The notes under the pieces are model-generated. The model made no database searches, was not told where the DNA came from, and saw nothing but the letters and a program-made list of their open reading frames with translations. DNA of 64,000 bases from Longimicrobiales bacterium (GTDB taxonomy: Bacteria > Gemmatimonadota > Gemmatimonadetes > Longimicrobiales > Gaopeijiaceae), in the NCBI GenBank assembly GCA_965202805.1, contig OZ241869.1, positions 1,856,001-1,920,000 of the forward strand, given 5' to 3'. Both the position numbers and the translations under genes were made by a program. The first letter of the stretch is position 1; every line of letters begins with the position of its first letter. This document shows, piece by piece, positions 1 through 17,488 of this stretch.

Positions 1-2
1 TC

Positions 3-2516: not shown

Positions 2517-5500
2517 CTACCGCAATCTGATCCGTCCGCGGACACCCACCGAGTGCTGCGCCCCAGCGGGACCGCTCTCGCGCCGCGTGCCCTCAAGGCG
2601 CAGCCCGACGCCCGCGCCGAGGTCGTAGCGCACGCCGCTTGAGAAGGCGCGCGCCCCGCCCCCGGCGAGGTGGAAGCCGCCGTAGGGCGTCCCCTGGAAG
2701 CCGGCGATGCCGTAGGCCACCTCGCCGTCCACGCTGGGGCCCGTGCCCAGGCCGTGGCCGCCCATCGCGTCGGAGACCCCGCGCTCCCAAAGCTGGTCCA
2801 CCCCACTCCTGTGGTCGCCGTATGAAGGTGCCACCCGGATCGAGAGTCCCTCGCCCCGGGCCGCCGGGTCGAGCATGAGCGTGCCGCCGAAGCCCCACTC
2901 CTCGTAGCCTTCGCGCGAAGAGAGGACGAAGCGGCCGCGGCCCTCCGCGGTCACGCCCAGGCGGGAGTTCGTGTAGCGGAGTCCGCCCCCGACTTCCGCG
3001 CCGGCGCCGTTCACACCGTCGCCGTTGTCGTATCGCATCCCGCCCTCGAGCACGACTGCGAGTTCGTGCCCGGTGTCGGTGCGGAAGCCCTGCGTCAACT
3101 CCAGGGCGAGCTTGCCGCGCTGCATGTCGAGCGTGACCGCCTCAATCTGCGCGCCGCCGTCGACCTTGACCCGGCTGTACCAGCCCTCGGCCTTGATGCG
3201 GATGCCACGCGCGCCGCTGTCGAGTAACTGGTAGCCGGCGCCTCCCGCTCCCGTCAGCATGCTGGCCGGGCTGGTGCGGAGTCCCTCGCGCACGTCGTCG
3301 ACCTCGATTTCGCCCCGGCCGAGACCGGCCGAGCCCCACACCGAGGTGCCGCGCGCGTCGGAGAACCACGCCAGGTAGGGATGCACGCCGGTCATGGTGG
3401 CGCCATAGGTGCCCCTCACCGGGCTGGCGCCGGTCTTGTCGGTGAAGTCGAAGCCGCCGGAGGAGTACGAGCCCGCGACACCCGCCAGGATGTCCGGTCC
3501 CACCCGCACGTCCACGCCGGCGTGGGCGCTCACCATGTTGCCCTTCCAGTCGAGGGCGCTCGCGCCGGGCTCGCCGAGGTGGTGATACTCGCCGCCGCCC
3601 CAACTCGCCAGTTGCGTGCCGGTGGACGACTGCTGCTGCGCGCCCGACGCCCGGAACGGCATCTGGAAGGAGGTGCCGCCGAAGAGCGCGGCCAGTCCGG
3701 CTTGATCGCCTTGGGCGAGGCCCAGCCCGCCCGCGCCCGGCGCCGACAGGCTCGCGGCCATCGACGAGAGTCCGTTCGTCTCCACGCGCCGCTCCATCCC
3801 CATCCCGCTGGCTACCACGTCCACCCGGCGGGCGATCGCCGAGACCGTGCTCGACGTCATCGCGGCCGCCACGTGCGGCAGGACGCTCGTGTTCAGCCGC
3901 CCCGCGCGCTGGACGGGGTCGTCCGTGGCCGCCGAAGCGCTCCCCGACGGCGCGCCGGTGCCCGCCCGGTTGATCGCCGAGACCCGGTAGTGGCGCACGC
4001 TCCCCGGCTGCAGGCCGGTGTGCGAGAAGGCGGTGACCGTGGACTGGGTGTTGGTCTCCAGGTCGACCCAGGCGGCGCCCGTCTCCGAGACCTCGATGCG
4101 GTAACCCGTGATGCGCGCGCCGCCGTTGTAGGCGGGCGCGACCCAGAACAGGTCGATCTGCGTGGGCGTGACGTCGTTGGCCATGAGCCCGGTGGGCGCG
4201 TCGGGCACGGTGGCGTCCGTGGTCGAGCCCGCGACCCGCGACGCATTGCCCACGCCGATCCGGTTGATCGCCGAGACGCGGTAGTGCCTCGTCGAGGCCG
4301 GCTCGAGCCCGCCGTGCGTGTAAATGGTGGCCGGGGTGCGCGTGTTGGCCACCAGGTCCTCCCAGCTCCTGCCCCCGTCGGCCGACACCTCGATGCGGTA
4401 GCCGGTGATGCGCGCACCCCCGTCGTCCGAGGGCGCCTGCCAGGAGAGGCCGATCTGCGAGGTGCCGACCGCGTCGGCGCTGAGACGCCGCGGCACCCCC
4501 GGAAGGGTCGCCTCGGTGGTCGCCCGCGCCGTGTTCGAGAACTGCCCCACCCCCGCCAGGTTGATCGCCGCGACCCGGTAGTGCCGCGTGGTCGCGGGCC
4601 GGAGGTTGACGTCGGAGAACGTCGTCGTCCTCGCGTTCGTGTTGCGGCGGATGATGTTCCAGGTGCCGCCCCCGTCGTCGGAGGCCTCGATGCGGTAGCC
4701 GATGATCGAGACGCCGCCGGTGTAGCGGGGCGCGTTCCACGCCAGATCGATGCGCGCCGTGCCCACCGCCTGGGCCGTCAGCCCGGTCGGGACCCCGGCG
4801 AAGTCGGCGTGCGTAAGGGCCGTCGCCGGGAGCGCCGGGGGCATCGGCGACCATGCCCCTTCGCCCACGCGGTTTATGGCCCGAACCCGGTAACTGTACC
4901 GGGTCACCGGCTTGAGCCCGGTGTGCGTGAAGGTCCTCGTCGTCGTCCCCGTGTTACGCTCGAGATCGATCCACGAGTTGTCGTTGGGCCCTTGCACCTG
5001 GATGCCGTAGCCGGTGACGCGCTCCCCGCCATCGTTCTCCGGCGGGTCCCAGGCGAGGAGGATGCTTTTCGGTCCGGTCGCGCGCGCACGCACGTTCTGC
5101 GGCGGCCCGGGCGGCGCCGCGGTGGTCATCGCGTTGCGCACGCTGGATGGAGGTCCCGTCCCCTGGCTGTTGACCGCGGACACGCGATAGAACCAGGTGG
5201 TCGCGGGTCTGAGGCGGGTGTCGAGGTAGGTGGTGGTCGTGCTGTTGGTGCTGGGCACCAGGATGATCCAGCCCGTGTTGCCGTTGGGGGACCTCTCGAT
5301 GCGGTAGCCGGTGATGGCGCTCCCGCCGTTGTCGGACGGAGCCGACCATGTGAGGAGGAGCTGGCCGCTTCCCCTCAAGCCGCTCGGGGTCACCCTGAGC
5401 CCCGTCGGCCGGCTCGGAACGGTGACCTCGGTGGTGGCCCGGGCGGTGTTCGACCAATCGCTGTGGCCCGCCCGGGTGATGGCCCTGACCCGGTAGTGGC

Positions 5501-6803
5501 GGGTGGTGCCGGCACTCAGGTCGCGGTGGGTGTAGGTGGTGGACGTGGTGTTGGCCACGCGCACGCTCCAAGGGTCGTTTCCCGTGAGCGACGACTCGAT
5601 GCGGTAGCCGGTGATCGGCGACGAGCCCCTGGTCGAGGGGGCGCTCCAGCTCAGCTCGATGGCCGACGTCCCCCTGGCCCGCGCCGTCAATCGCCGGGGA
5701 GCGCTGGGCAGCACATGCTGCGTGGTGGCGTCGGCCACGTTGGACGGGTCTCCCACCCCATTGAAGTTGATCGCCGAAACCCTGTAGTGGCGCGTCTCGC
5801 CCCCGGAGAGACCCGTGTGGCTGTAGCTGGTGTCGGTGTTCCGGGTATTGCGCACCAGATTGGACCAGGTGGTGCCGGCATTCGTCGACACCTCGATCAG
5901 GTACCCGGTGATCCTGGCGCCGCCGTCCGAGCTCGGCGGATCCCACTCCAGGTCGATCGTGTCGGTGCCGACGGCCTCCGCCGTGAGGTTGCGCGGCTCG
6001 CCGGGGACTCCGGTGCGCGTCGTCCCGGTGAGGTTCCGCGCCACGCGGTCGAAGCGGAGCGCGAGATTGCCGACCGCGTCCCTGGCCGCGTTGTCGCCGC
6101 CGGCGCCGTAGAACACGCTCACCTCGTCGCCCCGCTCGACGGGGCCCTCCAAGAGCAGAAATATTTCGTCCGCCGACAGCTCGACCTCGGATACCCGCCT
6201 GGTGTGGAACGTGCCGCTCCGGATGAAGGACACGGAGAAGTCGCTGGCCGACGGGACGAAGTCGTCATCGAGGTCTTCGTCGAAGACGACGACGACCTCT
6301 TCGCCGTTGACCTTCACCTCGTCCACCTCCGGGGCCTTGTTGTCAACGCGGAAGTCGTGTGTCCTGGCTCTGCTCTCTTCGCCTCGCCTGTTCTCTGCCG
6401 CGCCCGCAGGGATGGTGACGATTACCGTGCGGTCATAGTCCGGATCCGTGATGAGGTGGAGCGCGTAGTTCGAGCAATAGTCCGCGTCGCAGTCCTCCAG
6501 GACATCCTTGGTGGCGCCGAAGACCTCGATCTCCCCGATCGTGAGACCGGTCACGGCCTGCGAGAAACCGATGTTGATGCGGATTTCCTCGTGCACGGAC
6601 CCCGTGAAGGTATGCGAAAGCCTGACCGTGGGGGCGACTGCCGCGCGCGCTGCAGCAACTCCCGCGGCGGACCGGACTCCCTCATCCCAGCCATCCGCGG
6701 ACGGCTCCTGAGCGCGCGCGCGCGTCGGTGGAACCAGGAACGCGCAGATCGCTGCGGCAGCCAGAATGGGACGAACGGGTACGCCAGGCTGATTCGGAGT
6801 CAT
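2517..6803 (-). CDS. Fibronectin type III repeat autotransporter (signal peptide, Ig-like, SwmB-like, 7 FN3, beta-barrel)
   Basis: Signal peptide (ARA-Q). Seven P..P..L.A / W..P..DGG..ITGY.IE / YRVSAIN repeats, a helical linker and a C-terminal barrel. Confidence 0.9.
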   Translation of the reverse strand: MTPNQPGVPVRPILAAAAICAFLVPPTRARAQEPSADGWDEGVRSAAGVAAARAAVAPTVRLSHTFTGSVHEEIRINIGFSQAVTGLTIGEIEVFGATKDVLEDCDADYCSNYALHLITDPDYDRTVIVTIPAGAAENRRGEESRARTHDFRVDNKAPEVDEVKVNGEEVVVVFDEDLDDDFVPSASDFSVSFIRSGTFHTRRVSEVELSADEIFLLLEGPVERGDEVSVFYGAGGDNAARDAVGNLALRFDRVARNLTGTTRTGVPGEPRNLTAEAVGTDTIDLEWDPPSSDGGARITGYLIEVSTNAGTTWSNLVRNTRNTDTSYSHTGLSGGETRHYRVSAINFNGVGDPSNVADATTQHVLPSAPRRLTARARGTSAIELSWSAPSTRGSSPITGYRIESSLTGNDPWSVRVANTTSTTYTHRDLSAGTTRHYRVRAITRAGHSDWSNTARATTEVTVPSRPTGLRVTPSGLRGSGQLLLTWSAPSDNGGSAITGYRIERSPNGNTGWIILVPSTNSTTTTYLDTRLRPATTWFYRVSAVNSQGTGPPSSVRNAMTTAAPPGPPQNVRARATGPKSILLAWDPPENDGGERVTGYGIQVQGPNDNSWIDLERNTGTTTRTFTHTGLKPVTRYSYRVRAINRVGEGAWSPMPPALPATALTHADFAGVPTGLTAQAVGTARIDLAWNAPRYTGGVSIIGYRIEASDDGGGTWNIIRRNTNARTTTFSDVNLRPATTRHYRVAAINLAGVGQFSNTARATTEATLPGVPRRLSADAVGTSQIGLSWQAPSDDGGARITGYRIEVSADGGRSWEDLVANTRTPATIYTHGGLEPASTRHYRVSAINRIGVGNASRVAGSTTDATVPDAPTGLMANDVTPTQIDLFWVAPAYNGGARITGYRIEVSETGAAWVDLETNTQSTVTAFSHTGLQPGSVRHYRVSAINRAGTGAPSGSASAATDDPVQRAGRLNTSVLPHVAAAMTSSTVSAIARRVDVVASGMGMERRVETNGLSSMAASLSAPGAGGLGLAQGDQAGLAALFGGTSFQMPFRASGAQQQSSTGTQLASWGGGEYHHLGEPGASALDWKGNMVSAHAGVDVRVGPDILAGVAGSYSSGGFDFTDKTGASPVRGTYGATMTGVHPYLAWFSDARGTSVWGSAGLGRGEIEVDDVREGLRTSPASMLTGAGGAGYQLLDSGARGIRIKAEGWYSRVKVDGGAQIEAVTLDMQRGKLALELTQGFRTDTGHELAVVLEGGMRYDNGDGVNGAGAEVGGGLRYTNSRLGVTAEGRGRFVLSSREGYEEWGFGGTLMLDPAARGEGLSIRVAPSYGDHRSGVDQLWERGVSDAMGGHGLGTGPSVDGEVAYGIAGFQGTPYGGFHLAGGGARAFSSGVRYDLGAGVGLRLEGTRRESGPAGAQHSVGVRGRIRLR

Positions 6804-6858
6804 CGGTGCCGTCTCTGCGTCAGATGAACGCGCGGTGGAATAGGGACTTGAACGAGCG

Positions 6859-6894
6859 TCACCCCCCGCCCGGAAGGTCCCGGACGGGGGGTGA
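6859..6894 (-). terminator. GC-rich hairpin downstream of the lipoprotein gene (terminator or mRNA stabiliser)
   Basis: Perfect 10-bp inverted repeat TCACCCCCCG / CGGGGGGTGA. No clear U-tract. Confidence 0.5.
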
Positions 6895-6958
6895 GCCGTC
6901 CTGCGACCATCGGCCTGACCGGTGACGAGTCAGCCAGGCCGATGGTGTTGAAGGGTGA

Positions 6959-9900
6959 CTAGCTGCTTGCCGGGTCGGCGGCGACGTCCTTCGTCTCGGT
7001 CGCCTTCCAGACTTCCTCGTCGTCGTCGTCGACCTCTTCGGCCTGTCGCGTCTCGACACGGACCTTGAGCGCCTTCCGGAGGTCGGCCTCAGTCACGTTC
7101 AGCTCCTGAGTGCTGCCCGCGATGGTCCAGTCTGCTGCCGTGAAGCCACTAACGACGAGCACCGCGCTCGTCGCATCGGTGCCGCCAGCAGTCAAAGCAA
7201 GCTCGGCTGCGTCTTCGGCGATGAGCGACTGCGTTCCGGCCGCTCCCATATCGAGCGTGATGACGACTCGCGTAGCGGTTCTGGAGTTCGTCGAGACTTC
7301 CCAGTTGACGATGAGGCTGTCGGCAGTCGCACCTGCTTGAGTATCACGCACTGCAGTGATCTTGCTGGGCGATGCGTCGACCCGAGCAACGGACCTCATG
7401 CCAGAGTTGCCCGTGCGCGTCTCGGTGCTGGCGTCCGCCAGTGTCTCGGTCGCCGAGACGCTGACCCGGACGCTGAAGCCGAGGTCGCCCTCGTTGCTGT
7501 CCGGGGCAGTGAACGTACCTACCCTGACGCCCTCAGTCACATTGTCTTCGGTGTCGGCGCTGCCATCGGGCGCGAAGGACCCGTCCGTCCAGGTGGCACC
7601 GGCTTCGCCGCAATCCGCAACGCAATGCTCGACTGTGTGCGTGATGGCGCTGAAGCCGGAAACATCGGCATCGAACTGCCAGCGGATGTTGACCGCCCCG
7701 GTGTAGTTGCCGGTGGTTGCGTCCTTCACCCGCGACGTGGTGATGCTCCTGGCGTTGACGCTCACTCCGGTGATGTTGCCGAAGTTCACGGTTTGACCGG
7801 GAGCAACACGGACATCTTGCTCGTCGTCGGGATAGCTGAAGCGCGTGAGGCTGGTCGCCGGCGCCGCGGCTGTGATCGTGTAGCGGTCGTACGGCACGCT
7901 GAGCGAGAAGCTTCCCGTTCTGCCGGTCGTGGCGGTAGCCGTCGCCTCAGCGCCTTCTACGCCCGCCTCCGTCGCCGTGACGGTAACGCCGCTCATCGGC
8001 CCGCCACCCGGACGAACCACTCTACCGCTGATCGTGGCGTTCACGAAGCCGGTGAAGTTGAAGCCCGAGACGGCCGAACCGGCGTGCGCGGGAATGTCAT
8101 CGATCTCATCAGGCACGAAGGACATGCCATCCTTCGAGACCCTGAGCCAGACTCCGTCGCCCCGGTCCTGGGCCTTGACCATCACCGTGTAGCTGCCGTC
8201 GGCGCCCGTCAGATGAATGTCGTTCTTCGTGGCGCCCTTCGACTTCGCGTTCTTGTTCTCCGGGGCCTCGTACTTGGTGCCATCGTAGCTCACCTCGACC
8301 TTCACGCCCGGAATCCCATCGCCGCTGCCGGAGGCAGTGACCCTACCGCTGATCGAGGCCGTCTCGGCCGCAGCCGTGAGCTTGAGGTCGTTGCCGTCAT
8401 CGTCCTCCACCTTCTTCACCGTGTTGGCTGCGAATGTGAGGGTCACGCTGGCCTTGCCGACGTCTGCGACCGAGGCCTCCACGAAGATGCCGGTCACCTT
8501 CTTCTTGCTGACGGTGCGCGTCTCCGACTTGATGCCCTCGATAATGAAGCGGCCATGCTGGTCGGTCATGGTCGACGCATTGTTCGCGGTCACGGTCGCG
8601 CTGTCCATGGCGAAGCCTTCATCGTCGACGATGAATCCGTAGACGGTCGCCGTGGCCGGTCTGACGGTGAGGTCGACAGGTCCCTCGATCGGTTCGAACA
8701 TGTCGTCGGCGTCTCCACCGTTCGCCTCCCACCCATCGGAGACGCTGAGCGAGTAGGCACCCGCCGCGACATCGGCGAAGGTGAACGCACTCATCGGGTT
8801 GTCGCCCTTGGTCTTGTCCGAACGGGTGTCCTTCTCCGTGGTAGTGAAGGACTCTTCCTCACCCGCCAGATTCTTGCCGTCGACCGGGCTCAGGCTGACC
8901 GTGACCCCTGCCTCGGTGTCTTCTTCCTCCACGGCCTTGAAGTCGTCGCCGTCATCCATTGCGACGGTTTGCTTCGTCACGGTCCCGCTCACCTCGTAAG
9001 TGGTCACGTAGGCGAACGACGCGCACTCGCCGTGATCCTGAGGCGCGGTAGCCTGCAGCGGGCAAAGCTCGACCGTGTGGTTGAAGCCGCCCATCGCACC
9101 GAAGGCGCCACCGGTGATGCCGTTGACGTCCATCCCCGTGTATGCCGCGAGCTCGTCGGGCTCGAGGAGTTTGATGTTCGTGTCATCGGCAACCTTGCTC
9201 GCCTGGACGATGACGTTCTCGTCGGCGGGCACGTTGCTGAAGGTGTGCACGCCTTTGCTGTTGCTGCTCTCGATGCTGTCCGCGGCCACGAACGCACGGG
9301 AGCGCCCGCTACCGTCGATGTAGCGGATGCCGACATCGACCATGCGGTCGTCACCGCTGCCGTCCCTCTCGTCGCCATCCAGGAGATTGCCGGTATAGCC
9401 CATCACCTGGTCGCGCTCGTGGTGCACGTAGACCTTGAGGGTCTGGGTCGTGTACTGCACCTCCATCGTGCCGGCGTCAACGGTGCCCGCCAGCTTGAGA
9501 CCGGTGTGCGTGAGCTCGACCGAGCCCGGATCGTAGTCCTCGCCGCCGTCCAGCTTGTTGTCCTGGTCGTCGGCGACCGCGAAGGTGTAGGTCGCGGGCA
9601 GGTCGGCGGCCGTCACGGTCGTCTTGAACGCCGCGTTGCCCTCGTCGTCCAGCTTGTCGGGCGCGCCATCAACCGCATCATCGCCGGACATGACGCTCAT
9701 CGCCCAGCCCTTCAGCGCCTTGCCTCCACCGTAGTCGGTGGTGATCGTCGCGCCGCTGACCGTCGCGTCGACGCTCAGGTTGACGAGGTCGTGGCCGTTG
9801 GAGCCCGCGGTTGCGAACATCTGCGGATCCCACGACACGGCCGTCATGCCGTCGCCGCTGTAGTCCTCGTGGGAGACGCTCGCGTGAACCATGTTCCCGC

Positions 9901-11596
9901 TGGTGCCGGCGCGCGCGACCTTGATCGCCACCGAGCCGTCGTCGCCGGTCTCACCGCTGCCGACCTTGGTCTTGTCATCCCCAGCCGAGTCGTAGAGCGT
10001 GACGGACGCGCCGGAAACCGCAGCGCCGGTGTCGTCGCCGTGCTTCAGCATCACCGTGAAGTTCACGGTCGTGTGCGTGATGTCGAACGGAATCCCCTGC
10101 GAAGCGGCCTCGCCGACTCCGAGAGCGATCTCGTAGCCGGTCGCCGGTCCGCCGTACGCCACGTCGTTGGCCGCGAGTGCCGCCGCCACCGTGGCGTCGA
10201 TGAGGACGACCAGCTGGTACGGGCCGGAACGCAGACCCGAGAACGAGAAGGCGCCGGTCGCGTCGGTCGCGCCCAGCCGCTGCTCGTTGACGCCCGGGCC
10301 CACCAGCGCCACCGGAATGCCGGCGTGCGCCAGAGGATGCTCGCCCTCGTCGTGCATGTCGTTCTTGGTCGCCTCGTCGAGGAACACCATTCCCGACACG
10401 CTCGCGGTGCGCGCGTGCATGCCCTCGAAGTTCACGATCGCCGACTCGTCGTCGCCGACCGTCACGTCCGTGCTCATCGACTCGAACACGTAGGCGTCGC
10501 TCTCGACGGAAATCGAGACCGTGTAGTCGCCGGCCGCCAGGCCCGCGAAGTTGTACTGGCCGCCGTCGTCGGTCGTCGCCATCTGGGCCTCCTCTCCGCC
10601 CGACAGCGTGACCTCGATGCCGCCGAGGCCCATGCCTTCGACGCTCACCCGGCCGGCGATGCCCGAAGTCCGGAGCAGGACGCCGGTGAACGACACCGTT
10701 CCGGTCTCGTCCAGATCCACGCTCACGTCCTGCGACGTGGACGCGAACTCGTAGTCGCGGGTGTCGAAGTCGGAGATCGAGACCGTGTAGGAGCCGGGGC
10801 GCAGTTCCTCGAACCGGTACATGCCGTCGGCGTCGGTCATCATCGTGTAGCTCTCGTCGGCGGGACCGCCGGAGAGCGTCACGGTGACGCCCGCAAGGCC
10901 CTCGCCCTCGATGATCACCTGACCCTCGACCGCGGAGGTGCGGATAAAGTGTCCCGTAAAGTCGGCCTGGCCGACCTCGCCCACCTCGACAGAGATCTCG
11001 AGGCTTACTTCCTCGAAAGAGACGTCCTCGGGGAAGTCCGAGATAGTGACCGTATAGGTGCCGGCGCGGAGCCCGGTGAAGGCAAAGCCGCCGCTCATGT
11101 CGGTCTCCATGGTCTCGCCCATGGCGTGCTCGCCGCCGAGCGTGACTGTAACGCCCGCCAGCGTTTCGGGCTGGCCGTCGCCGCCGCTCATCATCGCGTC
11201 GGCCGCTACCACGTTGCCGACCACGGCCGAAGACCGGATGTACTCACCGGCGAAGTTGAGTTGCACGTTCTGACCATCGGTCGCGATGGTCGCGGACTGC
11301 GTCACCTGGGCGAACGTCGCGTCCTCGGGGAAGCCGCTGATTGTGACCGTGTAGGTCCCGGCTTCCACGCCCGAGAAAGCGAAGCTGCCACCCGACCCCG
11401 TCGTCGTGGTCGCACCCGACGACAGAGTGGCGGTGATGCCGCTGGCGGCCGTCCCTTCAATCGTCACCGTCCCGGAGATGGTCCCCACGGGAGTCGGCGG
11501 CGGGGGCGGCTCCACAGGCGGCGGAGTGCCCTCGTCGCAGGCGGTGAAGGTCAGGGCCATCAGCGTTGCTGTGGCGAGGAGCTTGAGTCGGTTCAT
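6959..11596 (-). CDS. Large surface lipoprotein with tandem carboxypeptidase-regulatory-like / CnaB-type beta-sandwich repeats
   Basis: Lipobox FTA-C, a Pro-rich linker, repeated GVTVTLSG...G.Y.F.GL.AG.YTV.IS units and an AGGAGG RBS. Confidence 0.88.
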   Translation of the reverse strand: MNRLKLLATATLMALTFTACDEGTPPPVEPPPPPTPVGTISGTVTIEGTAASGITATLSSGATTTTGSGGSFAFSGVEAGTYTVTISGFPEDATFAQVTQSATIATDGQNVQLNFAGEYIRSSAVVGNVVAADAMMSGGDGQPETLAGVTVTLGGEHAMGETMETDMSGGFAFTGLRAGTYTVTISDFPEDVSFEEVSLEISVEVGEVGQADFTGHFIRTSAVEGQVIIEGEGLAGVTVTLSGGPADESYTMMTDADGMYRFEELRPGSYTVSISDFDTRDYEFASTSQDVSVDLDETGTVSFTGVLLRTSGIAGRVSVEGMGLGGIEVTLSGGEEAQMATTDDGGQYNFAGLAAGDYTVSISVESDAYVFESMSTDVTVGDDESAIVNFEGMHARTASVSGMVFLDEATKNDMHDEGEHPLAHAGIPVALVGPGVNEQRLGATDATGAFSFSGLRSGPYQLVVLIDATVAAALAANDVAYGGPATGYEIALGVGEAASQGIPFDITHTTVNFTVMLKHGDDTGAAVSGASVTLYDSAGDDKTKVGSGETGDDGSVAIKVARAGTSGNMVHASVSHEDYSGDGMTAVSWDPQMFATAGSNGHDLVNLSVDATVSGATITTDYGGGKALKGWAMSVMSGDDAVDGAPDKLDDEGNAAFKTTVTAADLPATYTFAVADDQDNKLDGGEDYDPGSVELTHTGLKLAGTVDAGTMEVQYTTQTLKVYVHHERDQVMGYTGNLLDGDERDGSGDDRMVDVGIRYIDGSGRSRAFVAADSIESSNSKGVHTFSNVPADENVIVQASKVADDTNIKLLEPDELAAYTGMDVNGITGGAFGAMGGFNHTVELCPLQATAPQDHGECASFAYVTTYEVSGTVTKQTVAMDDGDDFKAVEEEDTEAGVTVSLSPVDGKNLAGEEESFTTTEKDTRSDKTKGDNPMSAFTFADVAAGAYSLSVSDGWEANGGDADDMFEPIEGPVDLTVRPATATVYGFIVDDEGFAMDSATVTANNASTMTDQHGRFIIEGIKSETRTVSKKKVTGIFVEASVADVGKASVTLTFAANTVKKVEDDDGNDLKLTAAAETASISGRVTASGSGDGIPGVKVEVSYDGTKYEAPENKNAKSKGATKNDIHLTGADGSYTVMVKAQDRGDGVWLRVSKDGMSFVPDEIDDIPAHAGSAVSGFNFTGFVNATISGRVVRPGGGPMSGVTVTATEAGVEGAEATATATTGRTGSFSLSVPYDRYTITAAAPATSLTRFSYPDDEQDVRVAPGQTVNFGNITGVSVNARSITTSRVKDATTGNYTGAVNIRWQFDADVSGFSAITHTVEHCVADCGEAGATWTDGSFAPDGSADTEDNVTEGVRVGTFTAPDSNEGDLGFSVRVSVSATETLADASTETRTGNSGMRSVARVDASPSKITAVRDTQAGATADSLIVNWEVSTNSRTATRVVITLDMGAAGTQSLIAEDAAELALTAGGTDATSAVLVVSGFTAADWTIAGSTQELNVTEADLRKALKVRVETRQAEEVDDDDEEVWKATETKDVAADPASS

Positions 11597-11668
11597 GGAA
11601 CCTCCTGAGTGGTGGAAATGAAATGCCGGCCTGCAAAGGCTGGACGAAGAGTCGCGTGCCCCTGGATA

Positions 11669-11684
11669 AGCAAAGGTGGTGCCA
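11669..11684 (-). promoter_or_regulatory. sigma54 (-24/-12) promoter of the lipoprotein gene
   Basis: The minus strand reads TGGCAC-CACCT-TTGCT, an exact TGGCAC-N5-TTGCW match about 70 nt upstream of the ATG. Confidence 0.8.
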
Positions 11685-11944
11685 ACTTCGGAACCTTCAT
11701 GTTTGACAACCAGTTACGGACTATCACACCCCCGTGTGGAATCCGGTGAAACCTGCAAATCCTCGGATTGTCGAGGGCGACCTCTGTTTTCTGATTGCGA
11801 CATAAACGATAAAGTGTTACCGATATCGCCAAAATATCAGAAATATATCCCTCCCGTCACTGGAACTCCCGCCTTGCGACATACGACGTTTTCGATAATC
11901 TTAACTCCAAAATTGACTGTGGGGCGATTCGCCCCCGCTCCAAA

Positions 11945-11980
11945 TTGACAAGATCGCCGATCATGCCATACTGATATAAT
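11945..11980 (+). promoter_or_regulatory. sigma70-type promoter candidate for the AraC-like/dead-TnpB operon
   Basis: TTGACA at 11945-11950, TGc-CATACT with the hexamer 16 nt later, and a TATAAT at 11975-11980. Confidence 0.5.
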
Positions 11981-12055
11981 AAGGCTCACCATGGGGGCAC
12001 GCGAACCGGGCACCGCCGGTTCGGCCCCGCGTCTCGTCACTCCAGAATCGCACCG

Positions 12056-12919
12056 ATGAAATCGAAAGAACCGGCCTACATGATGTATTGCAGGGACCTC
12101 GAGGTTCGAGCCGCGCTGGAGCGCGCGTTCACCGCTTACCCGGTCCGGCGAGTGCGTTCGCGAAAGGCACTCGAGACGCCGCCCGCGAACATCCGCGTGA
12201 CGGTATTCGCAACCGAGACGTGCACCGAGCGCGAAGTCCGGTGGCTGCTGTCGATGTTCGGGCTTCTGAGTCCGCCATGCATCGTGGCGACGGGCCTCTC
12301 CCTGGACTGCATGCGGCGAATGCACTCACTCGCCTCCGCCAGGCTGAAGGTGGTGTGGGCCTCCGATGTCAGAGACCGCCTCAAGCCGGTCCTGGATGGC
12401 CTCTGGATGCAGAATTGGAGTCCGATGGGGCGTTTCGGCCTGGGACTGCTGGACGAGCTCAAGCCGATGAGGGACTTCCTCAGGAAGACGATCCGCATTG
12501 CGTGCGGCCTGCACGTCGGTCCCACCCTCCCTCCCTTCTTCCCGAGAACGACCGTCAGAAGGCTGGCGGCCGAGGTCGGCGTCGCCACATCGACGCTTCG
12601 GCTCTGCTGGAGGGAGGAAGTTCCGCTCCGGTGCAACCTGAAGGGCCTCCTGGGCTGGTCCCTCGTCCTCTGGGGCACGCGCGAACGCACGTCCCTGGAC
12701 TGGGCTGCCATCGCCGGAAAGCTGCGGATGCCGCGCCGCACGCTGGAGAGAAACTTCATTCGGACGGCCGGATGCACGCTCGGCGAGGCGGCCGACGATC
12801 CGGAACGAGTCGACAGGCGATTCGCCGAGTGGGTCGATTCCGTGTGGGATCCCGATGCCGTCCGCAGGCCCGGCGCCGGGAACATTGTGGCGCAGGAACC
12901 CACCGAGGAGCTGCGCTGA
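12056..12919 (+). CDS. AraC-like double-HTH transcriptional regulator with a degenerate receiver-like N-terminal domain
   Basis: Two HTH-like segments, TVRRLAAEVGVATSTLRLCW and WAAIAGKLRMPRRTLERNF..TAGCT, with AraC-like spacing. Confidence 0.7.
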   Translation: MKSKEPAYMMYCRDLEVRAALERAFTAYPVRRVRSRKALETPPANIRVTVFATETCTEREVRWLLSMFGLLSPPCIVATGLSLDCMRRMHSLASARLKVVWASDVRDRLKPVLDGLWMQNWSPMGRFGLGLLDELKPMRDFLRKTIRIACGLHVGPTLPPFFPRTTVRRLAAEVGVATSTLRLCWREEVPLRCNLKGLLGWSLVLWGTRERTSLDWAAIAGKLRMPRRTLERNFIRTAGCTLGEAADDPERVDRRFAEWVDSVWDPDAVRRPGAGNIVAQEPTEELR

Positions 12920-12921
12920 CG

Positions 12922-13962
12922 GTGGCCGGATCGACTTCCCGGCGCTACGTCGGCTGGCGCTGCAGGCTCTACCCGAGTCCCTCACAGGACGCGGCGCTCG
13001 CCCGGTGCCGGAACGCCCTGCGCGAGCTGTCCAACACGCTCCTCGTCAACTCGCAGCTCAGCTACAGCGAGACCGGACGGCGGCTGACCAAGGCCGAACT
13101 GCACAAGCTCATCCGGGACTGGCGCGCCGGAGGGGCGAGCCAGGGGTGCCCGGCCAGCGCCATGTACCGCGTGGCCGCCGATCTCCACGTGGCCTTCCGC
13201 AACTGGTTCAAAAGGCAGGGCAGACGCGGGCGAAAGGGGTTCCCCCAGCTCAAGAGCATGGGCCGCGAGCCCGGCATCTACCTCAGCAACCAGGGCATCC
13301 GCTTCGACGGCAACCGGGTGTGGCTGCCGAAGTACGGCTGGGTGCGCTGGAAGGGCGGGAAACTGCCCCCGGGGAGATTGCCGGGCCCCGCCGGACGCAA
13401 GACCCTCGGCCTGCTCTCCGGGCGCGTCTGGCTGGATGCGGGGAACCGGTGGATGCTCTCGTGCCTGTTCGAGTGCGCGCCGCTCACGCCCTCCAGGGCG
13501 AGCACGGACAGGGCCGAGGTCCGGCAGCGGGGCCGCGAAATCACGGTGTCGGTCGACGGGGAATCGGTCCGCGTGATCCGCGAGAACAGGGCGCTCCGCA
13601 ACGCCAGACGCCGCCTGGCGAGGCTCGAGCGGCGGCTGGAGCGGTGCGAATTCGGTTCCGAGGGCCGAAAGCGCACCCTGGCCCTCATGCGCAACCAGGC
13701 GCGCAAGGTCCGGAACCACCAGGCGGATCTGCAGCACAAGGCCACGACGGGCGTCGTGCACGAGGCCCGCGAGATCGAAGTCGAAGGCGCGAGCTCGGAA
13801 CTGCTGCGCCAGCTCGAATACAAGGCGGAGTGGTACGGCCGCCGACTGAAGGTACGGCGAGGCCCGCCGAAACCGGGGACGGGCAATCCCCGACGCGCGC
13901 GGAGACCGGGGAGCCGGTCGCAGAAACGCGAATCGCGGACGCGAAGGCCGAAAGCTCTGTAG
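12922..13962 (+). CDS. Nuclease-dead TnpB homologue (TldR-like, 346 aa)
   Basis: GTG start 2 nt after the upstream TGA, with a GAGGAG RBS. TnpB motifs RLYPSPSQ, AFRNWFK..GFPQLK, VWLPKYGWVRW, NRWMLSC, LARLERRLER...GS, DLQHKAT and LRQLEYKAEWYG are present. The RuvC-I GxD, zinc finger and RuvC-III D are absent. Confidence 0.85.
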   Translation: MAGSTSRRYVGWRCRLYPSPSQDAALARCRNALRELSNTLLVNSQLSYSETGRRLTKAELHKLIRDWRAGGASQGCPASAMYRVAADLHVAFRNWFKRQGRRGRKGFPQLKSMGREPGIYLSNQGIRFDGNRVWLPKYGWVRWKGGKLPPGRLPGPAGRKTLGLLSGRVWLDAGNRWMLSCLFECAPLTPSRASTDRAEVRQRGREITVSVDGESVRVIRENRALRNARRRLARLERRLERCEFGSEGRKRTLALMRNQARKVRNHQADLQHKATTGVVHEAREIEVEGASSELLRQLEYKAEWYGRRLKVRRGPPKPGTGNPRRARRPGSRSQKRESRTRRPKAL

Positions 13963-14000
13963 CCGTCTGCGAAGGCCGGAACGAATCAGGGACGACGTCA
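13874..14000 (+). ncRNA. Candidate omegaRNA/guide RNA scaffold overlapping the 3' end of the dead tnpB
   Basis: Stems CGGGGA/TCCCCG, GACCGG/CCGGTC and TCGCGGACG/CGTCTGCGA. The layout ACG-CGCG-CGGAGA...GAAA-CGCG-AA resembles tnpB 3' ends as I recall them. Boundaries are approximate. Confidence 0.5.
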
Positions 14001-14243
14001 GGCGCCGCGGCGTCGTGGACCTCCCGTCGCTCGGCGGCGGCCGTCCACGATCTTCCCGGTCGCGCGATGCTGTGCGATCAAGCGCGTGAGTTGGGCGCGA
14101 GAGAACTCCGTGCCCTCCCGGAGCGTCTTCTTGATCTGCGACTTCTCCTTCTTGCGGAGACCATGGTAGCCGGTCTCGTCGAGAAGCTCCGCGATGAACT
14201 GGTACTGCGCGTCCCTGGTCCCGTCGCTCGGCGTCTCGTTCAA
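13998..14243 (-). CDS. 81-aa protein resembling the N-terminal HTH of integrase-core transposases
   Basis: Y.FI..L....Y..L.KKEK..I...L...T.FSRAQLTRLIAQHRATGKI pattern. ATGA overlap with the bactofilin stop codon. Confidence 0.55.
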   Translation of the reverse strand: MNETPSDGTRDAQYQFIAELLDETGYHGLRKKEKSQIKKTLREGTEFSRAQLTRLIAQHRATGKIVDGRRRATGGPRRRGA

Positions 14244-14734
14244 TGAGACCTCCCGTCAGGTTCGCGCCGGGTGTCCTCGGACGAACGCCGGGTGTCGTCT
14301 TCGCGCCGGGTGTCGTCTTCGCGCCGGGTCTCCTCGGACGATGTCTTGAACGCCACGTTGATCAGGGCGCCCTTCTCGACGGCGATGCTCAGGGTGTCGA
14401 TCTCGCCGTCCACGACGCAGGACGCCTTCAGTTCGATACTCGAAGCGGTCTCCACCCGGCCACGGACCCGCCCGGAAATGACGGCGTCCCGGGCCAGGAT
14501 GTCGCCCACCACCACACCGTTCTTCGCAACGACGATGGCCTTGTCCGACCTGATGTCGCCGTCGACCCGGCCTTCGACCCGGATGGTGTCCCTGCTGCTG
14601 CAGTCACCGACCAGGGTCATCCCGCGTGCGATGACGGAAGCCGCACCGTCCGGCTCGGCGGAGGGATCGCCACCCGGGCGCCGCTTCATCCGCGGCGGTG
14701 CGCTCGGGTGCCCCTTCCTCAGGAAAGGAGTCAT
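14240..14734 (-). CDS. Bactofilin (polymer-forming cytoskeletal protein, CcmA family)
   Basis: SVIARGMTLVGD...IRVEGRVDGDI...VVVGDILARDAVISGRVRG beta-helix repeats. An alternative start exists at 14803. Confidence 0.9.
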   Translation of the reverse strand: MTPFLRKGHPSAPPRMKRRPGGDPSAEPDGAASVIARGMTLVGDCSSRDTIRVEGRVDGDIRSDKAIVVAKNGVVVGDILARDAVISGRVRGRVETASSIELKASCVVDGEIDTLSIAVEKGALINVAFKTSSEETRREDDTRREDDTRRSSEDTRREPDGRSH

Positions 14735-15025
14735 GGCTTCGCCTGGGTGACCTGCAACGTCCTGGCGCGGGGACACAGCGCCCCATGCGACCGACGTGGG
14801 CATAGTTTCTCAAAATAGCCGATGATGTATGATTTGTCAGTGATATTTTGAGTGTGAATGATGATAAATTGGCGATAGGCGTCGATATTCCGGGAAGGTG
14901 CCCTTGAGTCCTGGCCGCGGATTCATCACGTTTGAGTGACAGTTCGGGTGCAATTGCGACGTTTTGGCGATTGATGATTGTGCCCGAGGGGTGAGAACCG
15001 GGCGAGATGCGGGGAGGGCAGGCTT

Positions 15026-15550
15026 GTGACGGAGCACCCGGACGCATTGAGAATCGAGGACGCATCCAGAGTCGAGGCGCTGCAGGAGCGCGTCTCGAGC
15101 CTGTGCAGCGCGATCCTGCGCATCAACGCGAGCCTGGACGTGGAGACCGTCCTTCAGGAGGTCGTGGACGGCGCCCGCGCCCTGACCGGCGCCCGATACG
15201 GCCTGATCGCCACGGTCGACGACGCGGGCGAAGCCGGTCCCTACCTCGTCTCCGGCCTGACGCCGGAGCAGTCGCGGCAGCTCGAGGAGTGGGAGGACGG
15301 CCTCCGGGTCTTCGAGCATTTCCGGGACCTTCCGGGTGTGGTGCGGGTCGCGGACCTGCCGGCCTGGCTGCGGTCGTCCGGCTTTTCGCCGATCGCGCTT
15401 CCGTCCAGGACGCTGCAGGGCACGCCGATCCGTCATCGCGGCGTCTACGTGGGCAGCTTCTTTCTCGCGGGAAAGGACGGGCGCGGCGGGTTCACCCGCG
15501 AGGACGAGGAGATCCTCGTGTTGCTGGCGTCGCAGGCAGCGGCGGCGATC
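15026..15550 (+). pseudogene. Truncated GAF-domain sensor (N-terminus of a histidine kinase-type protein)
   Basis: GTG start with a GGGGAGGG RBS. The sequence ILRINASLDVETVLQEVVDGARALTGARYG...FTREDEEILVLLASQAAAAI then switches abruptly to the antisense of the adhesin gene. Confidence 0.75.
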
Positions 15551-15792
15551 CGCATCCTGAGCGCCGGGTTCGCCGCCGCCCCACGCGAACAGGAACTCCG
15601 TGCCGCCGCCGGGCGCTCCGAGGCCCACCGGGCCGCCGAGGCCGGTCAGGCCCAGCGGGCCGCCAAGGCCGTTCAGGTCCAGCGGGCCACCAAGACCGGT
15701 CAGGCCCAGCGACGCTGCCAGGTCCGCGGGACCCGGAGACCCGCCCGTAGCGCGGCCATCGGCGGCGTCCGCCGCCAACTGCGCCAGCCTCC

Positions 15793-15848
15793 GCTCGGCT
15801 GCGCGCCCGGCTGCACGCCCGGCTGCACGCCCGGCTGCACGCCCGGCC
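15793..15848. repeat. 12-bp tandem repeat (encodes RAAG x4)
   Basis: ggctgcacgccc units. Confidence 0.8.
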
Positions 15849-16366
15849 TCCCCGCGCCCCCCGCCGCGCCAGAGCCGCGACACCGCCCAGCCTTCGAGCA
15901 GCCGTCCGGCCGCCTGGCGTGCCGCGTCCCGGCCCAGTGGGATCGAGCGCCCCCCCACCGTCAGGCGCGACCGCTCGTCCGCACCGCCCGGCCCCACGCG
16001 GCGGCCGAGCGTCATGCGCGCGCTTGCCAGATGTGCCCGCGCCATCGCCGCCAGCGTCTCGTCGAGGACGGCGCGCACCATCCGGTCGCTTGCGTTCACG
16101 CCGAAGGTCTGCGCCGCGGAGAGCCCGCCCGGATCGCGCGCCGTCACCTCGATGGAAGCCGGGCCGTAGCCGACCGGCGTCAGCGTCAGCGCCGAGCCCG
16201 CCACGGACACCGCGGCCACGCCCGGATCGGACGACACGGCCATGTAGGCCAGCGGGTCCCCGTCGCGGTCCGCGAAGTACGGCGCCAGGTCGAGCGCCAC
16301 CGACCCGCCCCCCTCGTCGAGCGCCTGGTCCGGGATCGCGCCCACTGCCTCCGGCGCGTCGTTCAC

Positions 16367-17488
16367 CGACGCGACCGCCACCACGACCTCCGCCTCCGCC
16401 GTACCGCCGTTGCCGTCCGTCACCGTGTAGGTGAACCGGTCCGTACCGTGCCAGTCCGCCTCGGGCGCGTAGGTCACCCCGCCGCCCGCCGCGACCCGCG
16501 CCGTCCCGTGCGAGGGAGCCGTGACGGACTCGACCCTCAGTGTGTCCCCCTCGACATCGGTGTCGTTCGCCAGCACGTCGATCACCACCGGCTCGTCCTC
16601 CGCCGTCGCCGCCGTGTCCGCCACCGCTTCCGGCGCGTCGTTCACCGGCTCGACCACGACCTCGACCTCTGCCTCCGCCGTACCGCCGTTGCCGTCCGTC
16701 ACCGTGTAGGTGAACCGGTCCGTCCCGTAATAGTCCGCCTCGGGCGCGTACTCGACGCCGCCGTCGGCGGCCGCCCGCGCCGTCCCGTGCTCCGGCGGCG
16801 ACACCGACTCGACTCGCAGCGCGTCCCCCTCGACATCCGTGTCGTTCGCCAGCACGTCGATCACGACCGGCTCGTCCTCGGCCGTCGCCGCCGCGTCCGC
16901 CACCGCTTCCGGCGCGTCGTTCACCGGCTCGACCACGACCTCGACCTCCGCCTCCGCCGTCCCGCCGTTGCCGTCGGCAACCGTGTAGGTGAACCGGTCC
17001 GTCCCGTGCCAGTCCGCCTCGGGCGCGTACAGCACGCCGCCGTGCCGATCCCCCGCAATCCGCGCTGTCCCATGCGCCGGAGCCGTCACCGACTCCACCC
17101 GCAGCGCGTCCCCCTCCACGTCCGTGTCGTTCGCCAGAACGTCGATCACCACCGGCTCGTCCTCGGCCGTCACGACCGTGTCGGCCTTGGCCTCCGGCCC
17201 GTCATTCACCGGCTCGACCACAACCTCGACCTCCGCCTCCGCCGTCCCGCCGTTGCCGTCGGCCACCGTGTAGGTGAACCGGTCCGTCCCGTGCCAGTCC
17301 GCCTCGGGCGCGTACTCGACGCCGCCGTTGGCGGCCGCCCGCGCCGTCCCGTGCGAGGGAGCCGTCACCGACTCCACTCGCAGCGCGTCCCCCTCCACGT
17401 CCGTGTCGTTCGCCAGCACGTCGATCACGACCGGCTCGTCCTCCGCCGTCGTCGCCGTGTCGGCCGCCGCCACGGGCGGCTCGTTCAC
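16367..17488 (-). repeat. Four ~280-bp near-identical intragenic repeats (Big_9/tandem-95-like Ig domains)
   Basis: AEDEPVVIDVLANDTDVEGD...GTDRFTYTV.DGNGGTAEAEV occurs four times. Confidence 0.9.

Follow-up and report, generated by a model that had tools for sequence, protein, structure and literature searches.

We analyzed a 64,000-nucleotide stretch of DNA, hereafter the window (G000:C1:1856001-1920000), taken from a 4.02-Mb one-contig genome that we call G000; positions given without a prefix are those of the window. Two adjacent plus strand genes are the focus of this analysis, namely reg (12056..12919, an open reading frame (ORF) of 287 aa with its TGA stop at 12917-12919) and dTnpB (12922..13962, 346 aa, with a GTG start at 12922 and a TAG stop at 13960-13962), which codes for a nuclease-dead and C-terminally truncated homologue of TnpB. 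The 3' end of dTnpB overlaps a predicted guide-RNA scaffold, and the short conserved tip that follows this scaffold matches the leader of lipoA, a giant lipoprotein gene located elsewhere in G000. We consider it fairly probable that the locus represents a new clade of TldR-type RNA-guided repressors that sits beside a variant lipoprotein operon and would silence the resident paralogue. Comparative sequence analysis establishes the observations on which this reading is built, which are loss of the active site, conservation of the reg-dTnpB pair, constraint on the scaffold at the nucleotide level and a match between guide and leader that recurs across species.

Loss of the TnpB nuclease active site

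Profile searches place dTnpB in the TnpB family with scores below the family cut-offs. The match to NCBIfam guided_TnpB has an E value of 1.8e-23 and 83 bits relative to a cut-off of 100 bits, the match to Pfam OrfB_IS605 (4e-5) is under the gathering score, and those to HTH_OrfB_IS605 and the TNB domain are weak too. The best solved natural homologue found with phmmer is ISDra2 TnpB (8exa/8h1j, E 4e-16), to which dTnpB aligns over residues 13-290 and then, after ~19 skipped residues, over residues 291-309. A first-pass annotation made from the sequence alone had already called 12922-13962 a dead TnpB, and the motifs that it quoted (RLYPSPSQ, GFPQLK, LPKYGWVRW, HKAT and LRQLEYKAEWYG) are all present in the dTnpB translation.

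Its description of the active site is borne out by phmmer as well as by a family alignment of 45 rows (A2). The active relatives in A2 (P0102, P0104 and P0111) contain GVDVG or GVDLG, IEDL followed by a lid, a CxxC...CxxC arrangement and HDRDxNAAKN. In dTnpB the position of the RuvC-I Asp is occupied by Arg201 within AEVRQRG, and the RuvC-II Glu is retained as E288 within IEVEG, immediately after which ~19 residues of the lid are gone. The C-terminus extends for 36 residues past YKAEWYGRRL and contains neither the CxxC pairs nor the DRDxNAA motif of RuvC-III. The Asp to Arg201 change and the deletion of RuvC-III and the zinc finger occur in all 27 family-1 rows of A2 and in all 11 rows of subfamily 2, a group of dead TnpBs with 50-55% identity to family 1 that are equally short, with Glu288 kept in most rows. 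These alignments confirm, at the level of sequence, that dTnpB is nuclease-dead. Within one genus, A2 also contains a graded series that runs from full-length but dead proteins, to dead proteins with a decayed zinc finger, to truncated ones.

No tnpA accompanies the gene, as was noted at first pass, with a profile search for the Y1 transposase (PF01797) finding none in the whole of G000 and matching 6 of 14 control genomes. A left end of a transposon was also not seen, conservation continuing leftward into the lipoprotein gene, with no dedicated element-end model having been run.

Conservation of the pair and selection on its genes

The set of 61 genomes that we searched includes G000, 18 other genomes of the same genus, 18 from other genera of the family and 24 from two other families. 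Full-length dTnpB matches with 72-83% identity are present in 15 of the 18 other same-genus genomes at up to 12 per genome; the gene is single-copy in G000. Of the 18 other genera of the family, one has TnpB-like matches, which are of the ordinary type with only ~29% identity, and a dTnpB search of the 24 genomes from the two other families gave no match. Public proteins of the dTnpB type form about 50 clusters, and the few names available for them point to Gemmatimonadota.

By tblastn, reg lies directly 5' of the TnpB-like gene in all 18 fetched family-1 loci, five of which (L016, L018, L021, L022 and L024) contain an N-terminally truncated reg with only its C-terminal half and one of which is cut by a contig end. 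The stop of reg and the start of dTnpB are separated by a 2-nt gap in the window and in 15 of 19 copies overall, with the other 4 of 19 having a 4-nt overlap. The GTG start of dTnpB is preceded by GAGGAG at 12906-12911, in agreement with the spacing and ribosome-binding site reported at first pass.

Selection was estimated by the Nei-Gojobori method on the 10 of 19 copies that have a full-length reg and an unshifted tail. Codons 1-290 of dTnpB have a nonsynonymous rate (dN) of 0.125, a synonymous rate (dS) of 0.453 and a dN/dS of 0.28, and the body of the protein is thus under purifying selection. The scenario raised at first pass, of a pair unique to this genome with a dN/dS near 1, fits neither the distribution of the pair nor this value. 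In codons 311-346, dN is 0.044, dS is 0.037 and dN/dS is 1.2; because dS is this low and dN/dS is this high, the tail is constrained as nucleotides and not as peptide. For reg, all pairs together gave a dN of 0.265, a dS of 0.527 and a dN/dS of 0.50.

At L035 (G006:C1:4439249-4443662) there is a cluster of rearranged partial copies, in two of which the scaffold end CAGGG is fused to the 3' end of reg (GGGTCGATTCC). Nine loci from different species (L013, L016 and L018-L024) have the same conserved convergent gene right 3' of the scaffold, and since this gene is common to all of them the sites are orthologous positions. In L016 and L018 a deletion has taken out the locus-specific spacer, and the scaffold directly adjoins the convergent gene.

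A predicted guide-RNA scaffold at the 3' end of dTnpB

The key feature that the first-pass annotation missed is a guide-RNA-like element at the 3' end of dTnpB. In a DNA alignment of 19 copies the sequence is near-invariant from ~13800 to 13991, after which similarity is wholly lost, and this almost invariant DNA comprises the last 36 dTnpB codons plus 30 nt past the stop. Synonymous change is 12-fold lower precisely over the scaffold relative to the gene body. In L023 and L024, where 1-nt deletions shift the frame of the tail, the tail DNA is still conserved. We place the omega-RNA-like scaffold at 13851..13981 (plus strand), from GGTACGGCGAG to GCCGGAA, where it overlaps the 3' end of the dTnpB ORF; its 5' limit is uncertain, with low dS starting near 13792. 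The scaffold is followed by the conserved guide-like tip CGAATCAGGG (13982..13991, plus strand), which together with the preceding GAA makes a 13-mer at 13979-13991, and then by a locus-specific stretch (13992..14016, plus strand) that differs in every copy. An inverted repeat, ACGACG..CGTCGT, is seen in this last stretch and could terminate the guide RNA.

A relative in G006 suggests how the scaffold came to be read as protein. This 408-aa protein (L036:3809-5032, 40% identity) has lost neither lid nor zinc finger (Pfam TNB, E 4e-15) and is also dead, with GVALG and DRALNAA. The sequence at its stop codon, GGTACGGCGAGCCCGCCGGAACC, has its homologous counterpart in the window DNA that encodes VRRGPPKPG, and the comparison indicates that ~165 nt were deleted, an event that removed the zinc finger and RuvC-III and joined the ORF to the predicted omega-RNA scaffold, so that the scaffold is now read as a basic tail. 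The locus would also show how a C-terminal tail of TnpB turned into translated scaffold DNA.

Folding 23 distinct scaffolds of three types with RNAalifold gave a consensus of 26 pairs, two of which exhibit compensatory change, one of these being a G-C to A-U change in a long-range stem found in each of the 4 family-3 rows. Pairing occurs in 97.8% of the cells of the consensus fold, versus 23.7-47.7% when partners are slid by 1-3 columns, and one stem keeps its base and tolerates inserts of 0-30 nt. Folded as a single sequence, the window scaffold is not better than shuffles (z -1.04), and an Rfam scan of 11600-14400 matched no family, the one match (CRISPR-DR29, E 5.2) being due to chance. With modest covariation support, we predict that the tail DNA of dTnpB and its 3' flank form an omega-RNA-like guide-RNA scaffold.

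Scaffold-like RNA genes that have no ORF were observed at two further loci. In G006 (L036:3491-5484) one precedes and one follows the full-length dead TnpB, and in G001 (L046:19533-19982) two are in tandem right 5' of a sigma54 lipoprotein promoter. The sequence after GCCGGAA differs in each of them.

A match between the guide tip and the lipoA leader

Every scaffold type ends in GCCGGAA. In family-1 scaffolds this is followed in almost every copy by CGAATCAG(G/C)G and then by divergence at every locus, and the window scaffold end is followed by the conserved CGAAUCAGGG. The 13-mer GAACGAATCAGGG has exactly two copies in G000, the first of which is the scaffold end at window 13979-13991. The second is on the minus strand at G000:C1:3414457-3414469, 26-38 nt 5' of the lipoA ATG (3414495), where the guide 13-mer is complementary to the sense strand of the lipoA leader. 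By chance 0.068 such matches are expected genome-wide and 6e-6 in three 120-nt leaders. The first-pass annotation had proposed the divergent lipoprotein or paralogous adhesins as regulated targets; the match in the leader of a paralogous giant lipoprotein is close to the second of these, and the leader of the divergent lipoprotein has no match.

The same relationship is observed across the genus. A scan with GAACGAATCAGNG gave 43 matches in 17 of 19 genomes, with the reversed pattern giving 0. By their coordinates, 27 of these matches are the 3' ends of TnpB-like matches. The other 16 include 14 at the same position of a lipoA-type leader, which has a sigma54 promoter ~115 nt 5' of the ATG and the guide-matching site at -35, and two located elsewhere (one in G009 and a CAGCG variant in G002). 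The leader site is present in 14 of 16 scaffold-bearing genomes, counting G011 where 12 of 13 positions match, and a search of the draft genomes G017 and G018 did not find it. In an alignment of 14 species, the longest invariant block of the lipoA-type leader is CCTGATTCGTTCAACC, and the target sequence that we propose in the lipoA leader is CCCTGATTCG. The site is found in none of 14 leaders of lipoprotein genes that adjoin a reg-dTnpB pair, even with up to 3 mismatches allowed, and none of 11 target loci searched by tblastn (9 of which have lipoA-type leaders) encodes reg or dTnpB. In G007 and G009, which have no dTnpB, 5 leaders per genome were examined and none contains the site.

Read along the non-target strand, the G000 site consists of AGGTTGAA followed by CGAATCAGGG and CTTT, and the lipoA leader copy is the only one of 11 genomic copies of the 10-mer that comes after TTGAA. 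We propose that TTGAA would serve as the target-adjacent motif (TAM) and that the guide would be 10 nt in length, although it could be 13 nt.

A locus-specific guide was also considered and rejected. Sequence past CAGGG has no match of at least 14 nt in G000 from 13986 onward, 19 scaffold ends have no local matches beyond those of a cross-locus control, and there is no match upstream of the three G000 lipoprotein paralogues. A 14-nt extension, CGAATCAGGGACGA, which is the guide plus the next four window-specific bases, does occur at G000:C1:1666679-1666692; it is within a gene for a PIN-domain toxin-like protein, is not preceded by TTGAA and is probably due to chance. The family-3 guides of G006 have 4 and 5 extra matches with up to 1 mismatch, none of them with TTGAA.

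Two further matches were seen for other scaffold types. The site G006:C1:4698242-4698254 (L108), ~300 nt 5' of a family-3 array, matches on the opposite strand 12 of the 13 nt that follow the scaffold of the L036 full-length dead TnpB. It adjoins a TATAGT box and may represent either autoregulation or a chance match: with one mismatch allowed, the genome contains 4 other matches, and the reversed control yields 1. The RNA tip of subfamily 2, CCGACTCAATA, has 7-9 nt in common with the lipoA-type leader (AACCGACTC), in the sense direction.

Association with a family of giant lipoproteins

The module-linked giant lipoprotein gene (6959..11596, minus strand) is divergent from reg, belongs to a multigene family and codes for 1545 aa with CarboxypepD_reg, SdrD_B and SpaA repeats. 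The second gene of its operon (2517..6803, minus strand) codes for 1428 aa with seven fn3 domains, and paralogues of this gene follow other lipoprotein copies. The sigma54 promoter that the first-pass annotation assigned to the divergent lipoprotein is real, with TGGCACCACCTTTGC (TGGCAC-N5-TTGC; 11670..11684, minus strand) lying 88 nt 5' of the lipoprotein ATG. On the other side, a sigma70-like promoter (TTGACA-16-CATACT with an upstream TG; 11945..11972, plus strand) precedes reg within a block that is conserved between copies.

A lipoprotein homologue is divergent beside reg in 11 of 16 pair-bearing loci, with the window counted. G000 has three full-length lipoprotein paralogues, namely the 1.848-Mb, window and 3.414-Mb copies, as well as one fragment, and the window and 3.414-Mb proteins exhibit 94% identity over the first 491 residues and 61% overall. 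The largest numbers of paralogues are found in G007 (~20) and G009 (~8), both of them complete genomes that lack dTnpB, and the G007 leaders that were examined contain no sigma54 motif. Subfamily 2 (L045) and the full-length dead form (L036) are directly 5' of lipoprotein genes and have no reg. Because both of these adjoin lipoprotein genes without reg, gene order indicates that the older association is that of a dead TnpB with a lipoprotein, and that reg is specific to family 1.

Subfamily-2 dead TnpBs that are truncated and lack reg were observed at L045:9520-10560 (G010, 53% identity), L039, L046 and L047, with the L045 copy located between an integrase fragment and a lipoprotein gene. Identical subfamily-2 copies occur twice in G001 and twice in G011, where they are inverted and 10 kb apart.

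At the left edge of the window two lipoprotein-fn3 operons face each other, one at G000:C1:1847156-1857199, the end of which is window 1-1199, and the other at window 2517-11596. The left lipoprotein copy (1.847 Mb) is missing its first ~110 codons and its promoter and is preceded by a gene for a 383-aa integrase-like protein. This copy might be a silent cassette or an integration scar.

The partner protein reg

The first-pass annotation had described the partner of dTnpB as an AraC-type regulator. The window protein has no Pfam or NCBIfam match, its small family forms 21 clusters at 90% identity that carry no Pfam annotation, and a profile search extended it to 349 representatives and gave 0 matches among PDB sequences. 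A model of the whole protein has a mean predicted local distance difference test score (pLDDT) of 58, with Foldseek returning nothing at E <= 0.001. Residues 4-125 adopt a CheY-like receiver fold in the model (Z 11.3, root-mean-square deviation 3.1 A, 112 residues aligned with 3q9s), where dozens of receivers match at Z 9.6-11 and pLDDT is about 60-82. The last 150 residues modelled alone have a pLDDT of 81 and again gave nothing with Foldseek at E <= 0.001. The weak fold matches of this C-terminal part are mostly to AraC/XylS DNA-binding domains (AraC 2k9s, 3mkl, YesN 3lsg, AdpA, Rns, Rob, SoxS and AraT; E 0.05-0.8), with 16 of the first 20 Foldseek rows being AraC-family or AraC-like DNA-binding domains (target-normalised template modelling score 0.25-0.62, E 0.05-0.6). 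Pfam HTH_18 is a weak match in 4 of 21 members of the family (best E 0.0055), HTH_18 or HTH_AraC is found in 15 of 109 remote homologues, all below the cut-off, and an ESM Atlas lead likewise suggests HTH_18. Profile scans of reg gave no sigma70-family domain. The AraC-type assignment has weak support from these fold matches and from sub-threshold Pfam matches, and no profile match above threshold was obtained. On these models reg is best described as an atypical receiver plus double-helix-turn-helix (HTH) regulator, possibly of the REC-AraC type.

In alignment A1, inspected by eye, the stretch after strand 3 of the receiver (VFATETC; VYGTTTCSD in relatives) shows no conserved Asp where an acceptor would be expected, and Cys56 is invariant. 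Seven cysteines of reg (C12, C56, C75, C85, C150, C193 and C240) are invariant or nearly so. Together with the lack of an evident acceptor Asp, this pattern of conserved residues hints at redox or metal sensing rather than phosphorylation.

A paralogue of reg elsewhere in G000 is divergent from a gene for a GAF-PAS-HisKA-HATPase kinase and has no TnpB beside it. A GAF-domain remnant homologous to the N-terminus of this kinase is located 3' of dTnpB in the window (14978..15760, plus strand). Since reg paralogues adjoin a kinase without TnpB and a kinase remnant follows dTnpB, we infer from the gene arrangement that a TnpB element may have landed between reg and its kinase, an older regulator-kinase pair.

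Neighboring genes and setting of the locus

The GAF-domain remnant is crossed antisense by a 1438-aa cadherin/Big_9 ORF (14837-19153, minus strand), and the last ~250 codons of this ORF are probably not part of the native coding sequence; alternatively, the GAF piece may be a dead remnant. Between these genes and the guide region lie a bactofilin gene (14240-14803, minus strand; Pfam E 1.3e-22) and an adjoining 81-aa ORF of no family (13998-14243, minus strand), which converges on the guide region with its stop codon overlapping the post-guide hairpin. No tRNA and no direct repeat of at least 12 nt that would mark a genomic island flank the region 1.847-1.870 Mb. Several of the 18 public sequencing runs that contain 11600-14300 are sponge metagenomes.

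Proposed model and alternative explanations

In the model that we favor, the reg-dTnpB operon would be transcribed from the sigma70-like promoter at 11945-11972, and the 3' end of the transcript (about 13851-13981) would constitute an omega-RNA scaffold followed by a fixed guide of 10-13 nt, (GAA)CGAAUCAGGG. We infer that this RNA is made and is bound by dTnpB, and that the complex recognizes DNA and not RNA, binding the matching site (non-target strand TTGAA plus CGAATCAGGG) in the transcribed lipoA leader 3' of its sigma54 promoter. Binding would lower lipoA expression. The variant lipoprotein operon carried with the module (6959-11596 plus 2517-6803) has no site and would be spared, and reg most likely controls expression of the module. 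The module would then probably serve, under RNA guidance, to switch between surface coats.

A more ambitious version, which we regard as improbable, would have reg and dTnpB be the two halves of a signal-responsive RNA-guided transcription factor, with the ribonucleoprotein giving the address in the lipoA leader and reg giving the signal-dependent output, and with the several modules of a genome forming a network that selects, out of 3 to about 20 giant surface lipoproteins, the one to be displayed by a sponge-associated bacterium.

A number of observations weigh against RNA-guided repression of lipoA. The TAM is a guess, as the GAA may be scaffold or part of the match. Since the guide would pair with the sense strand, the presumed TAM is oriented away from the promoter, and the reporter tests described for TldRs found that targets in the 5' untranslated region (UTR) were efficiently repressed only in the opposite orientation. 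Variant tips ending in CAGCG, CAGGA or CAGGC are not compensated in the leader of their own genome; as the leaders of G003, G004 and G005 keep CCCTG, only 8-11 nt are matched there, and in several of the variant-tip copies reg is truncated or the tail shifted as well. RNA covariation is thin, with most pairs being invariant and 247 of 500 shuffles reaching the observed count of pairs that change on both sides. No RNA run is found among the 18 sequencing runs, which are of DNA or of a kind that is not known. Of 15 pair-bearing 20-kb loci, 4 lack an adjacent lipoprotein gene and a fifth is cut by a contig end. The window reg is unusually diverged, with a dN/dS of 0.7-1.0 relative to the other copies. 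Finally, the species compared are close kin and the counts are not independent.

The most probable alternative is that the RNA acts in trans as an antisense small RNA on lipoA mRNA, the tip pairing with CCCUGAUUCGUUC 23-35 nt 5' of the AUG, with dTnpB only processing, stabilizing or chaperoning the RNA and binding no DNA. This is a real rival because the guide, being complementary to the sense strand, could pair with the mRNA as well, and its DNA orientation is the one in which 5'-UTR roadblocks worked poorly in the TldR tests. We nevertheless judge it unlikely. Purifying selection persists on the parts of dTnpB (REC/WED and the RuvC scaffold) whose TnpB counterparts hold the RNA-DNA duplex, and a TnpB-style TTGAA is located exactly where a TAM would be expected. 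No TnpB relative is known to target RNA.

Somewhat less likely again is that the locus is a functionless, decaying IS200/IS605 remnant, with the pair hitch-hiking on duplicated lipoprotein cassettes and the 13-mer being an insertion-site fossil kept alike by gene conversion. Decay is observed among the copies, as 7 of the 27 family-1 matches with at least 72% identity contain TGA stops, reg is truncated in five loci, G006 has tandem fragments, reg of the window has a dN close to its dS relative to the other copies, and the guide variants are uncompensated in leaders. Against this, frames are intact in 20 of the 27 matches from many species, the gene body has a dN/dS of 0.28 at a dS of 0.45, and the 12-fold synonymous drop falls exactly over the scaffold. 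Conservation moreover ends at the same base in copies that have unrelated flanks, no block of the leader is more conserved than the site, and a fossil flank would not have been kept in about 27 copies while everything 3' of it differs.

About equally doubtful is a reading in which reg and dTnpB form one RNA-guided transcription factor, similar to dCas12f-sigmaE, that would cause activation or antisense transcription at the lipoA leader and not a simple roadblock. The tight coupling of the two genes (the 2-nt gap or 4-nt overlap in all 19 copies, and the adjacency in 18 of 18 family-1 loci) speaks for such a factor, as does the dCas12f-sigmaE precedent, in which transcription starts 46 bp downstream of the TAM. 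Two sister lineages of dead TnpB lack reg, however, and reg paralogues adjoin a histidine kinase without any TnpB, with a remnant of such a kinase downstream in the window. Seen from the presumed TAM, the guide also points away from the lipoA gene. A last alternative, in which the 13-bp repeat is a tyrosine-recombinase site for inversion or exchange of lipoprotein cassettes and not an RNA-guided target, could draw on an integrase gene and an N-terminally truncated lipoprotein copy without a promoter that lie immediately upstream of the window, the integrase fragment in L045 and the multi-copy family with about 20 paralogues in G007, but is very improbable given that the G000 copies are 1.5 Mb apart and inverted such that exchange would put no gene behind the lipoA promoter, that the repeat is always at the end of a structured TnpB-linked scaffold, and that paralogue-rich G007 and G009 have no dTnpB and no site in the leaders examined.

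Comparison with known systems

The reg protein resembles REC-AraC regulators of the YesN and AraT type in its CheY-like fold, in the weak C-terminal fold matches, which include YesN, AraT and AraC, and in having a paralogue that adjoins a GAF-PAS histidine kinase. It differs from them in falling below all Pfam thresholds and in having no evident acceptor Asp at the usual place. Relative to ISDra2 TnpB (8exa, 8h1j, 8bf8), the window system has the same arrangement of an RNA scaffold that overlaps the 3' end of the gene with the guide following it, and the presumed TAM TTGAA resembles TTGAT, the TAM of ISDra2. Unlike ISDra2 TnpB, however, dTnpB has an Arg at the equivalent of Asp191 and lacks the lid, zinc finger and RuvC-III; the locus has no tnpA or recognizable element ends, and the guide is fixed instead of being the flank of an insertion.

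With dCas12f-sigmaE (Hoffmann et al., 2026) the window shares a nuclease-dead protein of the TnpB/Cas12 family that is genetically coupled to a transcription protein, and the dCas12f guide is also short with an optimum of 14 nt. The locus differs from that system in having a partner other than a sigma factor, in lacking a CRISPR array and in its likely outcome, which is repression.

The closest likeness is to the TldRs. Three TldR clades, linked to fliC, oppF and csrA, have been characterized, 506 dead TnpB-like proteins have been reported, and the discoverers expect further clades; guides are 9-16 nt in length, and one TldR targets downstream of the transcription start site (Wiegand et al., 2023/2024; Xiao et al., 2026 preprint). 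The guides of oppF TldRs are short and have targets in transcribed regions, and at the prophage fliC-TldR locus (fliC_P) a variant structural gene is accompanied by an RNA-guided repressor that acts on the resident one. Like these TldRs, dTnpB is TnpB-derived, has a decayed RuvC site and a C-terminal truncation that removes the zinc finger, has no tnpA and is stably linked to non-transposon genes, and its predicted guide RNA spans the 3' end of the gene and continues past it. The logic of fliC_P is also recognizable in the short guide, which matches a promoter-proximal or transcribed leader of a paralogue of the neighboring structural gene. The window system differs in lineage and phylum, with protein names pointing to Gemmatimonadota and the locus occurring in sponge metagenomes. 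It also differs in its associated genes, which are giant sigma54-driven lipoproteins, and in that the unit includes a receiver-like/double-HTH protein whose gene is co-transcribed. All copies of the window type moreover have the same guide, several modules per genome are possible, and the function of the module is a prediction from sequence.

The string 'Gemmatimon' is absent from the supplementary files of the TldR preprint that we searched, where accessions may lack taxon names such that the family could be among the 506. A search of the literature, partly at the level of titles and abstracts, yielded no description of this association between a dead TnpB and an AraC-like regulator. Within the literature searched, the constant link to such a receiver-like protein has no precedent among TnpB-derived systems. 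If our reading is correct, the window would contain a fourth TldR clade from a little-studied phylum, with a target that is predictable from sequence alone by setting a 10-13-nt guide against the conserved leader of a sigma54-driven giant surface-lipoprotein operon. Such a repeat of the phage-flagellin logic hints that domesticated TnpBs may have a general role in the choice between paralogues.

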